Shown: positions 54,277 through 59,519, numbered from the stretch's first letter. The stretch is DNA of 64,000 nt from an uncultured Clostridia bacterium (GCA_945912145.1 CAMEBF010000008.1:12925-76924); one strand, 5' to 3'. The notes: generated by a model from the sequence alone, not told the origin. Numbers and translations are program-made.

Positions 54277-54305
54277 TTGACAATACATTACAATTGTATT
54301 ACAAT
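54277..54305 (+). promoter_or_regulatory. consensus promoter with an embedded palindromic operator
   Basis: TTGACA, 17 nt, TACAAT. The spacer contains the palindrome TACAATTGTA (54289-98). ATTACAAT is repeated at 54287 and 54298. Confidence 0.65.
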
Positions 54306-54336
54306 ATCAATAATATGAAAAGCAATGGTGGTTTTT

Positions 54337-54515
54337 ATGAATAAATTGATCATTCCATCAAAAAAGTATCGGGGCGATTCTTCGGTAGTGTCGGTAAGAT
54401 TGCCGAATGATCTGATTGATTCTCTTGATGAAATTACAAAAAAACCGGGCGGACACGGAATGAGATTATTCAGATTTGCTTGGAATTTGCCATCGAAAAT
54501 GTCGATATAGAATAA
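54337..54515 (+). pseudogene. ribbon-helix-helix (CopG-like) regulator interrupted by a -1 frameshift in an A7 run
   Basis: Frame 1 reads MNKLIIPSKKYRGDSSVVSVRLPNDLIDSLDEITKK, then nonsense. The other frame continues KTGRTRNEIIQICLEFAIENVDIE* (stop at 54513-15). A7 at 54438-44; A8 would give one 59-aa RHH protein. Confidence 0.7.
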
Positions 54516-54531
54516 AAGAGGTAGGGAAATC

Positions 54532-56850: not shown

Positions 56851-56892
56851 AATTCTATACAAAAAATTCTATACAATCAGGAGGAAAATGAT

Positions 56893-58806
56893 ATGTCCAA
56901 ATTCGTAATCGAATGTCCGAAATGTCATAATTATACCATGGCGTCAAAGGTGTTTAACCGCCATGTGAAATGCACCTGTGGTTATGAAATATCGGTAAAG
57001 AACGACAGAATGGCGGCAAAGGAGTGTCCCCATTGCCACAACACCGTTATCTATGACCAGGCAAAGGGCGCAAAGGCTGTTTGCCCCGTCTGTAAAGAGC
57101 CCATCAACACTTCCGAAGACTTAAAAAATGCGGTGGATATTTATTGTCCATCCTGCTCATGCGAGCTGGTGGTCGATAAAAACGGCGCAGAATATACCTG
57201 CCCGCTTTGCGAAACAAAAATCGACGTGCAAAAGCAGATCGCGAAGCAAAAGATAAAGAATCAGGGACTTGCCAGCGTGATCAAATATGAGGGCGGCAAC
57301 GACACCCTTGTCTGGAAGCATCCGATCGAGGATTTCAATCTCGGTTCACAGCTGATCGTTCATGAGTCGCAGGAGGCACTCTTTTTCCGCGACGGGCAGG
57401 CACTCGACCTCTTCGGCGCAGGCCGCTACACGTTGGCAACGCAGAATCTGCCCGCTCTTGAAAAGCTTTATAAGCTCCCCACAAACACCGATGAGGTCTT
57501 TCATTCTGAGGTTTATTTCATCAATCTGACGACCCAGATGGGTATCAAATGGGGCACGGATTCAAAAGTCCGGCTTTTTGACCCGGCTTCGGGACTGCAT
57601 ATCGAATTGGGTGCCTGCGGTCAGTTTAACCTGCGCGTCTGCAATTCGCGTAAATTTGTCCTGAAGGTCGTGGGTACCGCCGGTTCGTTTACGCAGGAAG
57701 AGATTTTCGGCGATTATCAGAAACAGAATGAAGACGCGAACACCGTCAATAAGGCGTACAGTATAAAATCCGCCGTCAGCCATTTCAAGGCACTTATTAT
57801 TTCAAAAGTGAAAGCGTTCCTTGCACGTTCGATCAAAGAGAATCAGATCAATATTCTCGAGGTCGATGAACACATCGACGAAATCTCCGAATACCTCCGT
57901 GAAAAAATCAACGAAGTGCTGGAGGACTATGGACTCACCATGCCGGAGTTCTTTGTGACGAGCATTATGACGCCGGATGATGATCCGAATTTTGTCAGCC
58001 TTCGTCAGCAGTTCGCGCAAAAGACTCTTCTGGTGCGTCAGGAGGAGATCAAAAAAGCGGAAGCAGAGGCCGCGCAGGCCAGAAAAATGGTCGAAGCGCA
58101 AACGGAAGCGCAGCTTAAAGTTGTTGGAGCGCAGGGTGAGGCGGAATCGCTGAAAATCAAGGCGCAGGCAGAAGCCGAAGCGTATAAGGCGCAGGCGTTT
58201 GCCGAAGCGGAAGAAATGCGCGCAAAAGGCTTTACATACAGTCAGGAAACAGCCCGTCAGGTCGGATTGGAAGCGATGCAGAACGGGATCACCGGCGGCG
58301 CCGGAGGTGCAGGAAACGGCATCGGCGACATCGCGTCTCTCGGTGTTACGCTTGGCGCGATGGGCGGTGTCATCGGCATGACAAAAGAGGCTTTGAGCCC
58401 GCTTATGGGAACGGCAGGCGACATCGGCGAAGGTATCGGAAATGTTGTTGCTGGAAAAACCGACGAGACTGCCGAAACCTGGGACTGCGCCTGCGGCATA
58501 AAAGGAATCACCGGCAACTTCTGCTCCAACTGCGGCGCAAAAAAACCAGCTCCTGTTGAAACCTGGGACTGTGCCTGCGGCAATAAGGGCATCAAGGGTA
58601 ATTTTTGTTCCAACTGCGGCGCCAAAAAGCCTGAGCCGCCGAAAACCTGGGATTGCGCCTGCGGCATGAAGGGGATTACCGGCAACTTCTGCTCCAACTG
58701 CGGCGCCAAAAAGCCAGAAGAGCCTGCAACATGGGATTGTGAATGCGGAAATAAGGGCATTACCGGAAACTTCTGTGACAACTGCGGAAAAGCGAAAGGA
58801 GAATGA
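56893..58806 (+). CDS. SPFH/Band-7 protein (YdjI-like) with three N-terminal and four C-terminal zinc ribbons
   Basis: 637 aa. CPKCHN/CPHCHN..CPVCKE/CPSCSC..CPLCET. SPFH core (..VIKYEGGNDTLVWKHP..VHESQEALFFRDGQ..). A/E-rich coiled coil and a Gly-rich linker. Then 4x TWDCACGxKGITGNFCSNCGAKKP. Confidence 0.8.
   Translation: MSKFVIECPKCHNYTMASKVFNRHVKCTCGYEISVKNDRMAAKECPHCHNTVIYDQAKGAKAVCPVCKEPINTSEDLKNAVDIYCPSCSCELVVDKNGAEYTCPLCETKIDVQKQIAKQKIKNQGLASVIKYEGGNDTLVWKHPIEDFNLGSQLIVHESQEALFFRDGQALDLFGAGRYTLATQNLPALEKLYKLPTNTDEVFHSEVYFINLTTQMGIKWGTDSKVRLFDPASGLHIELGACGQFNLRVCNSRKFVLKVVGTAGSFTQEEIFGDYQKQNEDANTVNKAYSIKSAVSHFKALIISKVKAFLARSIKENQINILEVDEHIDEISEYLREKINEVLEDYGLTMPEFFVTSIMTPDDDPNFVSLRQQFAQKTLLVRQEEIKKAEAEAAQARKMVEAQTEAQLKVVGAQGEAESLKIKAQAEAEAYKAQAFAEAEEMRAKGFTYSQETARQVGLEAMQNGITGGAGGAGNGIGDIASLGVTLGAMGGVIGMTKEALSPLMGTAGDIGEGIGNVVAGKTDETAETWDCACGIKGITGNFCSNCGAKKPAPVETWDCACGNKGIKGNFCSNCGAKKPEPPKTWDCACGMKGITGNFCSNCGAKKPEEPATWDCECGNKGITGNFCDNCGKAKGE
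58477..58803 (+). repeat. four in-frame 84-nt tandem repeats encoding zinc ribbons
   Basis: Repeats are near-identical at the DNA level (..ACCTGGGA(C/T)TG(C/T)GCCTGCGGC..AACTGCGGCGC(A/C)AAAAA..). Confidence 0.9.
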
Positions 58807-58811
58807 AAGCC

Positions 58812-59519
58812 ATGAAAACAAAAAACCTGATAAAGAATATTGTTATTTTTCTTATCGCGCTTATCATCTATCATGTATTGTTTTTTGCGCTTCCGTTTGT
58901 GCATACGCCGACTTTCTGGGGTGCATATATATTCGGAACCGTTGCCATATTGGCGCAGATCGGCGTTGCGGTACTATCTTTTCACGGTTCCGACACGCTC
59001 AGAAAAAAAGTTTATGCATTTCCGATCTCTCGCATGGGGATCATTTACCTGATCGTGCAACTCCTGATTTCTGTCATCTTTTCTACGATCGCTTCATTGC
59101 GCGATAACATTCCCGGTTGGATTGTCTATGTCGTAAGCGGTATTGTTCTGGGCGTATTTACGATTCTTGTTCTTCTTACCGATACAGCGAGGGATAAAGT
59201 GCAGGAAATCGAAGACGAAGAGGACCGGCAGACGGTACAGATCAAGACCTTCCGCGTCAACATTGATTCCATTGTCCGTCGTGTTAACGATCCCGAACTG
59301 CTGAAAATGCTTCAGAAACTCAGCGATACAGCAAGATACAGTGATCCCGTTTCGACCGAAGAGTTGTATCCGATTGAAGCTGAAATCACCGGAAAAATCC
59401 GTGAGCTGAACGATCGGATCGGGTGGGGAGATATAGACGGCGCCAAAGCGCTTGCCGAAGGAATTATCAACTTATTTGAGGACAGAAACGCCCTGTGTAA
59501 GATGTATAAGCGGAAATAA
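58812..59519 (+). CDS. 4-TM membrane protein with a cytoplasmic helical C-terminal domain
   Basis: MKTKNLIKNIVIFLIALIIYHVLFF.. Four hydrophobic spans followed by an acidic, helical ~100 aa. An in-frame ATG at 58803 overlaps the SPFH stop (ATGA), so either start implies coupling. Confidence 0.7.
   Translation: MKTKNLIKNIVIFLIALIIYHVLFFALPFVHTPTFWGAYIFGTVAILAQIGVAVLSFHGSDTLRKKVYAFPISRMGIIYLIVQLLISVIFSTIASLRDNIPGWIVYVVSGIVLGVFTILVLLTDTARDKVQEIEDEEDRQTVQIKTFRVNIDSIVRRVNDPELLKMLQKLSDTARYSDPVSTEELYPIEAEITGKIRELNDRIGWGDIDGAKALAEGIINLFEDRNALCKMYKRK

Follow-up and report, generated by a model that had tools for sequence, protein, structure and literature searches.

The analysed stretch, a window of 64,000 nucleotides (nt) from an uncultured Clostridia bacterium (GCA_945912145.1 CAMEBF010000008.1:12925-76924; positions are counted from its first letter), carries at 54277-59519 a cassette of genes for a small ribbon-helix-helix (RHH) regulator, a protein that joins a TIR domain to an RCC1-like propeller, a zinc-ribbon SPFH protein of the Band_7_1 family, and a protein with four transmembrane helices (4-TM). 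Our analysis places this cassette in a large mobile gene-neighbourhood family of Clostridia that is most likely an anti-phage (conflict) system, a reading to which we give a probability of about one half. The cassette looks like an undescribed anti-phage system, a TIR-based immunity organised on a membrane platform of SPFH and 4-TM proteins. We infer both the role in defence and the mechanism proposed below.

The grouping of these genes was first made in an earlier note on this DNA, which named their co-conservation in other genomes as the test of whether the grouping was more than random adjacency. We assembled a main sample of 14 distinct loci including the window, each with a full-length (586-672 amino acids, aa) SPFH relative, which were reached from three independent anchors, namely the 4-TM protein (L005, L006, L007, L013, and L015), the TIR protein (L001, L002, L024, L025, and L027, and the IMG/VR contigs L028 and L029), and the SPFH protein (L030 and L032). 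A TIR protein adjoins the full-length Band_7_1 protein in 14 of the 14 loci, 13 of which also have a member of the 4-TM family. In the loci found with the 4-TM protein, the Band_7_1 gene lies immediately upstream of the 4-TM gene with the TIR protein adjacent, and in those found with the TIR protein, the Band_7_1 gene is part of the operon and the 4-TM family is present in all but L025. The two SPFH-anchored loci have a TPR-TIR gene and a gene for a 234-235-aa protein after the SPFH gene; distant members of the 4-TM family were recognised by hmmsearch with E values of 1e-53 to 1e-64. For every locus, nucleotide similarity to the window is confined to 54357-59519 (blastn) and the flanks differ in each; since the similarity stops at the cassette edges, the cassette is a discrete unit in unrelated flanks. 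Chance adjacency of unrelated genes is effectively refuted because the co-occurrence holds in 14 of 14 independent loci with unrelated flanks, and the translational coupling of the SPFH and 4-TM genes also speaks against it. Judged from sequence, the TIR, SPFH, and 4-TM proteins form a real functional unit.

The surroundings of the related loci show that the family is mobile. Serine recombinases or resolvases lie near L001, L028, L029, L030, and L040, the flank of L002 contains TnpV, NikA, and a relaxase, and prophage-like genes or contigs occur among the IMG/VR relatives. The gene content of the operons varies as well. There are 1 to 5 TIR paralogs per locus, and their C-termini differ, consisting of RCC1 repeats of various lengths, SH3_3 repeats (L015), a DUF2207_C-like membrane segment (L032), or nothing at all; the RCC1 propeller is one of several interchangeable C-termini and is not what defines the system. 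Between the TIR and SPFH genes lies a slot that is filled in L001, L002, L007, and L027 by homologues of SIR2-like, AbiH, and Aristaios-type (DUF2971) abortive-infection genes and in L005 by a 322-aa gene with no family match, while in the window it is empty and consists of a spacer only. The SIR2-like slot protein matches the PADLOC models LmuA (E 3.7e-8) and ThsA1 (E 8.5e-7), and the DUF2971 slot protein matches PDC-S31 (E 3e-30); the DUF2971 family includes the experimentally validated Aristaios system (PMC11381338). Elsewhere, the related operons contain a trypsin-like protease with a zinc ribbon (RT-Protease, E 5e-13), a HEPN protein, and a Macro protein, the last encoded in the L025 operon. 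With mobile elements nearby and SIR2-like, DUF2971, protease, and HEPN genes inserted into the operon, the context looks like that of a defence system.

The features of the cassette in the window are as follows.

54174-54222, plus strand: terminator hairpin (RNA fold) at the end of the upstream RtcB operon, the 5' boundary of the cassette.
54274-54313, no strand assigned: operator-like repeats within the promoter, ATTACAAT twice and the palindrome TACAATTGTA.
54277-54305, plus strand: sigma-70-type promoter, TTGACA-17-TACAAT, 11 of 12 consensus positions.
54337-54516, plus strand: RHH (CopG-like) regulator gene, frameshifted; the uncorrected open reading frame (ORF) stops at 54510.
54532-56850, plus strand: gene for the 772-aa TIR protein, with zinc ribbon, TPR, TIR, TPR, coiled coil, 7-blade RCC1-like propeller, coiled coil, and zinc ribbon (Pfam).
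54532-55416, plus strand: conserved N-terminal ZnR-TPR-TIR module (ZnR, zinc ribbon), aa 1-295, the sole part common to all TIR paralogs.
55246-55248, plus strand: codon of Glu239, the putative catalytic Glu in W235-x3-E239 (WVKNEW).
55819-56631, plus strand: RCC1-like beta-propeller of seven repeats (RCC1_2), the presumed variable sensor.
56849-56876, plus strand: perfect 14-nt direct repeat, AAAATTCTATACAA twice, spanning the TIR stop codon and the TIR-SPFH spacer.
56893-58806, plus strand: gene for the 637-aa SPFH protein, with three zinc ribbons, SPFH domain (Band_7_1), coiled coil, Gly-rich segment, and four zinc ribbons (Pfam).
58471-58787, plus strand: 84-nt tandem repeat, 3.8 copies, encoding the C-terminal zinc-ribbon array (repeat scan).
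58803-59519, plus strand: gene for the 238-aa 4-TM protein with a cytoplasmic helical bundle (AlphaFold2 model, motifs, ATGA overlap).
59561-59606, no strand assigned: bidirectional terminator hairpin (fold), the 3' boundary, shared with a convergent esterase gene.

The gene layout and protein architecture that the earlier note had described were recovered, with corrections to the RHH gene and the promoter. Four same-strand ORFs lie within 54277-59606, at 54325/54337-54510, 54532-56850, 56893-58806, and 58803-59519; a spacer of 42 nt separates the TIR gene from the SPFH gene, and the stop of the latter overlaps with the 4-TM start in ATGA, with an AAAGGAG ribosome-binding site just 5', in keeping with the start/stop coupling that had been proposed. 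The TIR protein has CxxC...CxxC ribbons at both ends (aa 6-27 and 748-766), a TIR_2 match at aa 158-281 (E 1.9e-11) that is flanked by TPRs, and a propeller in which seven repeats are readable in the sequence and Pfam gives five matched stretches (RCC1_2, E 1.1e-48). The SPFH protein matches Band_7_1 with an E value of 8.6e-39 and carries seven CxxC...CxxC ribbons, three N-terminal and four C-terminal, as expected for the YdjI-type protein with 3 plus 4 ribbons that had been described. The AlphaFold2 model of the 238-aa protein (mean confidence score, pLDDT, 86.6) shows the four predicted transmembrane helices, followed by a cytoplasmic helical bundle.

More than 8000 homologues of the TIR protein were found. 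Their shared part is sharply delimited, as the DNA matches between paralogs end at 55412-55416 (blastn), just ahead of a disordered linker at aa 301-312, and the aligned N-terminal 440 aa are 50-81% identical to the TIR protein of the window. An AlphaFold2 model of aa 1-440 (pLDDT 88) has the TIR fold that the earlier note had assigned; Foldseek matched it at probability 1.0 to the MAL TIR filament (TM-score 0.74), AbTir (0.76), and MyD88 (0.77), and SNC1, RPS4, and TIR-STING were also among the matches. The conserved Glu of the WVKNEW motif is residue 239, and neither W235 nor E239 varies among 38 sequences. In the TIR domain of flax L6, the residue aligned with E239 is the Glu of SKWCLMEL, in a sequence match that is not significant (E 1.4). 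We take the Glu equivalent to E239 to be the residue that performs catalysis in TIR NADases. Among solved structures, BLIP-II (E 3.8e-16) and RCC1 (E 6e-5) come closest to the propeller. The G+C content is 0.38-0.45 across the propeller region (0.38-0.40 over 55500-57000) versus about 0.50-0.53 in the flanks, which fits a foreign or recombining origin of the sensor half of the TIR gene. Behind the TIR gene, the 14-nt direct repeat occupies the very place at which other loci have their additional SIR2-like or DUF2971 gene. It might be the scar of a deletion or a site of regulation; the other loci do not conserve the repeat, and no conserved element was seen in their TIR-SPFH spacers.

The N-terminal zinc ribbon of the TIR protein extends beyond TIR proteins. 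A hidden Markov model (HMM) of this ribbon matches every TIR protein and, in addition, non-TIR members of the related operons, among them ZnR-TPR (E 1e-23) and ZnR-RCC1 (E 1e-6) proteins. Such TIR-less proteins headed by the ribbon, with the trypsin-like protease as a marginal case, are encoded in L007 (10747-12968), L002 (6289-7983 and 13869-15548), and L025 (6959-7693). We also considered six loci of deeper relatives, the IMG/VR contigs L036-L040 and the Butyrivibrio fibrisolvens D1 plasmid pNP21 (L041), whose SPFH protein is about 390 aa long and lacks the N-terminal ribbons. The 4-TM family follows the SPFH gene in four of the six, and a ZnR-TPR protein is present in three, having no TIR domain in L036 and pNP21 and being cut by the contig end in L039. 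Because the ribbon heads TIR-less proteins and deeper relatives carry ZnR-TPR, the ZnR-TPR part behaves as a portable adaptor and the TIR domain as a payload. The N-terminal zinc ribbon of the TIR-less operon proteins suggests a shared adaptor module. The relative on pNP21 (NZ_CP146965.1, a 20.5-kb plasmid of a cultured rumen bacterium) is a reduced one, at 6700-10053, and comprises a gene for an SPFH protein, a 4-TM family gene that a duplication or frameshift has divided into two ORFs, and the gene for a TIR-less ZnR-TPR coiled-coil protein; its neighbours are a recombinase, a restriction-modification S subunit, and a YoeB/RelB pair. Experiments could start from this strain.

The SPFH protein, unlike the TIR paralogs, stays highly conserved: the best 120 of its 7864 homologues are 55-90% identical to it. 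The cysteines of the ribbons present in every sequence of our alignment A3 are all invariant, the fourth C-terminal ribbon varies in copy number in that alignment, and the number of C-terminal ribbon copies ranges from 1 to 7 among 121 sequences. An Ala/Glu-rich coiled coil accompanies the SPFH domain, and weak profile matches were obtained to erlin-1 (E 0.004), QmcA (E 0.013), and HflC. The 4-TM family comprised 58 clusters by word search and 3594 representatives at 50% identity by profile search, with lengths of about 225-240 aa. Its cytoplasmic bundle contains a conserved polar cluster and the invariant motifs YSDPVS and RN..C. The 238-aa protein of the window gave no Pfam, NCBIfam, or PADLOC match and no fold match in the PDB (best Foldseek E 0.05). 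It was tried as a homologue of YdjH and rejected, as YdjH is a TPM-domain protein; the architecture of YdjI is that of a Band_7_1 protein with zinc ribbons (PMC11237479).

The first gene of the operon is damaged in the window. RHH homologues of 62-75 aa head the operon in L001, L002, L007, and L027 and share the sequence ...SGRTRNE(I/V)IQMCLEFAAENIEI..., which agrees with the earlier note in placing an RHH gene here. The RHH switch that the note had envisaged is frameshifted in the window: the A7 run at 54441-54447, or the sequence behind it, lacks a single base, and the homologues imply A8. After this run, the uncorrected ORF continues out of frame as PGGHGMRLF..., that is, ...ITKKPGGHGMRLFRFAWNLPSKMSI*; helix 2 is lost to the frameshift, so this ORF does not encode an intact strand-helix-helix of about 45 residues, and it had no Pfam match and no family match. 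The neighbouring frame reads GRTRNEIIQICLEFAIENVDIE* after the run, ends at 54516, and agrees with the homologues (...SGRTRNEIIQMCLEFAAENIEI...). When the frame is corrected, the 59-aa product matches the CopG-like repressor family phrog_7325 (E 1.5e-7) as well as the BrnA (E 8e-6) and RelB antitoxin families. The missing A may reflect a genuine mutation of the repressor, whether inactivating or phase-variable, or an error of the assembly; the 93.8-kb contig from which the window is taken probably belongs to a metagenome-assembled genome, as its closest relatives do. Since the repressor is frameshifted, the operon may be de-repressed, unless the assembly made a homopolymer error.

Upstream of the RHH gene, the promoter had been called perfect, which is not quite the case, as its -10 hexamer is TACAAT. 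The same -35/-10 layout precedes the RHH genes in L001, L002, L007, and L027. The two ATTACAAT copies within it start at 54287 and 54298, with a spacing of 11 nt, and the corresponding promoter position is occupied by TATACAATTGTAGTATA in L007 and ATTACGAACGTATTACAAT in L027. These repeats fit autorepression by the RHH protein, which would presumably bind there.

In the mechanism that we propose, the small RHH repressor would bind the ATTACAAT repeats in its own promoter and keep the expression of the operon low. The ZnR-TPR-TIR-RCC1 protein would be sensor and enzyme in one, its variable propeller binding an invader-derived ligand that is probably a protein; such binding appears plausible because the propeller resembles BLIP-II and RCC1 and because the C-termini are swapped between paralogs. 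Upon ligand binding, the TIR domains would assemble and cleave NAD+ by means of Glu239. The zinc-ribbon SPFH protein and its translationally coupled 4-TM partner would form a membrane-anchored oligomeric platform, as SPFH biology and B. subtilis YdjI lead us to expect, and the N-terminal ZnR-TPR module of the TIR protein would dock on it. The platform may keep its clients inactive and set them free upon infection or membrane perturbation, or it may concentrate them for activation. In the minimal four-gene version the TIR NADase itself would be the effector, acting through NAD+ depletion and abortive infection, and other loci would add SIR2-like, DUF2971, protease, or HEPN effectors. In Bacillus, infection with phage SPP1 induces pspA-ydjGHI, and PspA at the membrane carries a conjugated CBASS cyclase, in a membrane fraction that also yielded YdjI (PMC11153139); the CBASS cyclase held on PspA is a precedent for an immune enzyme on a membrane assembly of this kind.

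We scanned the products of the window with Pfam, NCBIfam, and PADLOC (PADLOC-DB v2) models. The components of the cassette do not all match the models of any one PADLOC-DB v2 system, in line with the statement of the earlier note that the combination corresponds to no named defence system. Full-text searches of the literature returned nothing relevant on TIR with SPFH or Band-7, on TIR with RCC1, or on Thoeris with SPFH; one hit, the 'Tir' of a paper on PSP (PMC11237479), is the CesT/Tir chaperone and unrelated to the TIR domain. A 2025 survey of TIR signalling, as represented by its text and parts of its tables, gives 29 predicted Thoeris types, of which 11 are validated, and contains no SPFH, Band_7, PF13421, or RCC1 in those portions; the WVKNEW motif does not occur in the part of its Table S1 that was available, which is not conclusive (10.64898/2025.12.03.692087). 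The TIR protein shares with the TIR-bearing Avs and NLR-like proteins an N-terminal TIR domain and a C-terminal repeat domain (propeller or TPR) that varies between paralogs, an arrangement consistent with ligand-induced TIR assembly, but it differs from them in lacking a STAND/NACHT NTPase, in its obligate link to SPFH and 4-TM proteins, and in its ribbons at both ends. Its propeller is related to those of BLIP-II and RCC1, which are seven-bladed and bind proteins; the likeness is one of fold and repeat family only, and nothing ties the TIR protein to beta-lactamase inhibition or to Ran-GEF activity.

The main rival to the proposed mechanism is signalling of the Thoeris kind, in which the TIR protein would make an ADP-ribose-derived second messenger upon infection and the SPFH and 4-TM proteins would be the effector that disrupts the membrane. 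We consider this unlikely, and the same holds for the corollary that the signal is bound, for example, at the invariant YSDPVS / RN..C cytoplasmic bundle. The layout of one to several TIR paralogs with one conserved partner pair is that of Thoeris loci, the TIR domain keeps its putative catalytic Glu, the loci are carried on mobile elements, and membrane-spanning effectors are used by the validated Thoeris types II, VII, and X (10.64898/2025.12.03.692087; 10.64898/2026.04.20.719644). The conserved polar cluster in the cytoplasmic domain of the 4-TM protein would suit a signal receptor, and some related loci add a ThsA-like SIR2 gene or, in the L025 operon, the Macro gene. However, no known signal-binding domain (SLOG, Macro, SAVED, or similar) and no signal-binding domain of the type III-XI effectors was found in any of the four products, and PADLOC matched neither ThsA nor ThsB in the window, the ThsA1-like SIR2 protein occurring only in related loci. 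The partner here is a zinc-ribbon SPFH protein with a novel 4-TM protein, which is not among the 29 types in the portions of the survey cited above. Moreover, the TIR proteins of the cassette are large, with ZnR-TPR and sensor repeats of their own, and resemble single-chain sensor-effectors, and many loci hold additional effector-type genes, which argues against the SPFH and 4-TM proteins as the sole effector. Since deeper relatives keep the SPFH, 4-TM, and ZnR-TPR proteins when the TIR domain is missing, the pair needs no TIR signal.

The cassette could instead serve membrane maintenance in the manner of YdjGHI, with the TIR protein coupling NAD+ status or a cellular ligand to repair. A Band_7_1 SPFH protein with zinc ribbons is the architecture of YdjI, a membrane partner is encoded alongside, and the likeness to the PspA-YdjG-YdjH-YdjI module takes in its response to SPP1 and the presence of YdjI in the fraction with the tethered cyclase; the SPFH protein is also highly conserved and very abundant, and housekeeping genes flank some of the loci. 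The parallel that the earlier note had drawn with this module is nevertheless partial. It holds for the YdjI-type SPFH protein and fails for the 4-TM protein, which lacks the TPM domain of YdjH, and for PspA, since no PspA/IM30 domain was found in the cassette or among the neighbouring genes scanned; an NTF2-like YdjG is also missing from the scanned genes of the window, and zinc ribbons that are located on YdjG in B. subtilis are fused to the SPFH protein here. A maintenance function is quite doubtful in view of these differences and of a cassette that has TIR proteins and is mobile, whose genomic position changes from locus to locus, often near recombinases or on prophage-like contigs, with no conserved synteny outside it, and which has arrays of TIR paralogs with inserted SIR2-like, DUF2971, and HEPN genes. 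Very unlikely, in our judgement, is an addiction or competition module in which a TIR NADase toxin is checked by the other products and stabilises an element or excludes rivals: the cassette is often found beside recombinases or relaxases and has a relative on a small plasmid, and the RHH protein resembles the BrnA and RelB antitoxin families, but it is a minimal fold of 59-62 aa with no toxin-binding extension, a variable sensor and paralog arrays are not expected of a toxin-antitoxin pair, and no mobile element lies beside the window copy within the flanks examined. As defining features of Thoeris and of the YdjGHI module were tested and are missing from the cassette, we place it outside both.

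Several observations weigh against an anti-phage function or against parts of the mechanism. The SPFH protein is conserved to a degree unusual among defence genes. The flanks of L032 and of the window consist of housekeeping genes, with no mobile element in view, and the frameshift in the RHH gene means that the window copy may be decaying. PADLOC returned no match for the SPFH or the 4-TM protein and gave only a weak match of PDC-S66 to the TIR domain (E 2e-4). The ZnR HMM matches the trypsin-like protease marginally (E 1.2e-3), and the idea that the C-terminal ribbon of the TIR protein is the ribbon module of the SPFH protein was rejected, as an HMM built from 333 ribbon units matched 0 of 121 TIR proteins, which leaves direct contact between the zinc ribbons of the two proteins without sequence support. 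Finally, the locus sample was picked by hand and consists mostly of metagenome assemblies.

A wider, tentative form of the proposed platform is that the SPFH ring with its 4-TM anchor is an unrecognised membrane immune hub of Firmicutes, on which the ZnR-TPR adaptor docks interchangeable payloads. These payloads might include, on this speculative extension, TIR NADases with swappable sensors, bare propellers, and proteases. Such a hub could conceivably sense phage-induced perturbation of the membrane or envelope, or gate the activation of its clients.

The boundaries of the cassette agree with the terminators that had been placed on either side of it. The 5' hairpin, with its inverted repeat at 54179-54209, has a folding energy (dG) of -20 kcal/mol over 54172-54222 (z -4.5), and 0 of 200 shuffled sequences were as stable; the 3' hairpin reaches -22.7 kcal/mol over 59555-59612 (z -6.8). 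The latter lies between a run of A and a run of T and therefore also serves the convergent esterase gene. A simple terminator scan flagged neither hairpin, and both were verified by folding only.

Upstream of the cassette, the operon at 48745-54129 resembles an RNA-repair system and encodes WYL (48745-49989) and WCX (49986-50897) regulators, an 85-aa ORF, a DUF2828/DUF7788 protein that matches phrog_850 'RNA-binding protein' (E 2e-133), and RtcB. The L007 cassette too has RNA-repair genes upstream, HAD_SAK_2 and a PTS_2-RNA fragment. A functional link between the cassette and the RtcB operon was considered and rejected, given the strong terminator between them and a pairing in only 2 of 14 loci; because only these two show it, we record the pairing as an observation. 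About 10 kb upstream, an ATPase with AAA_14 and DUF4143 domains (43195-44478, minus strand) matches the PADLOC candidate PDC-S01 (E 2e-63). Beyond the convergent esterase gene lie two adjacent, paralogous-looking proteins with weak PHP-domain matches, at 60637-62022 and 62042-63565, both on the minus strand.

As for the reach of the searches, exact-sequence context look-ups with the TIR protein of the window gave no match, and the TIR N-terminal module has no relative in the PLSDB plasmid collection. When the 4-TM protein was used as query, the genome collection yielded 2 loci, metagenomes 5 short loci, and the viral collection none; so few came from the genome collection because a query with one protein reaches close relatives only.

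The cassette family is very abundant in gut and rumen Clostridia: clustering at 90% identity gives more than 7800 SPFH and more than 8000 TIR clusters, and the 4-TM family has 3594 representatives at 50%. Defence-system catalogues in current use fail to recognise it. Immunity based on TIR domains occurs in bacteria as well as in plants and animals, and every new bacterial arrangement has up to now brought to light new signals or modes of activation. To our knowledge, SPFH scaffold proteins have no established role in immunity. If confirmed, the cassette would be a new type of defence for a phylum to which screens in E. coli and Bacillus are poorly suited, would give SPFH proteins a defined client, and would offer a natural set of swappable sensors for studying how TIR enzymes are triggered. 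The membrane hub, if it is real, would bring a new principle of organisation to bacterial immunity, set apart from Thoeris, CBASS, and Avs, and would be the prokaryotic parallel to the TIR signalling platforms that animals build on membrane scaffolds.

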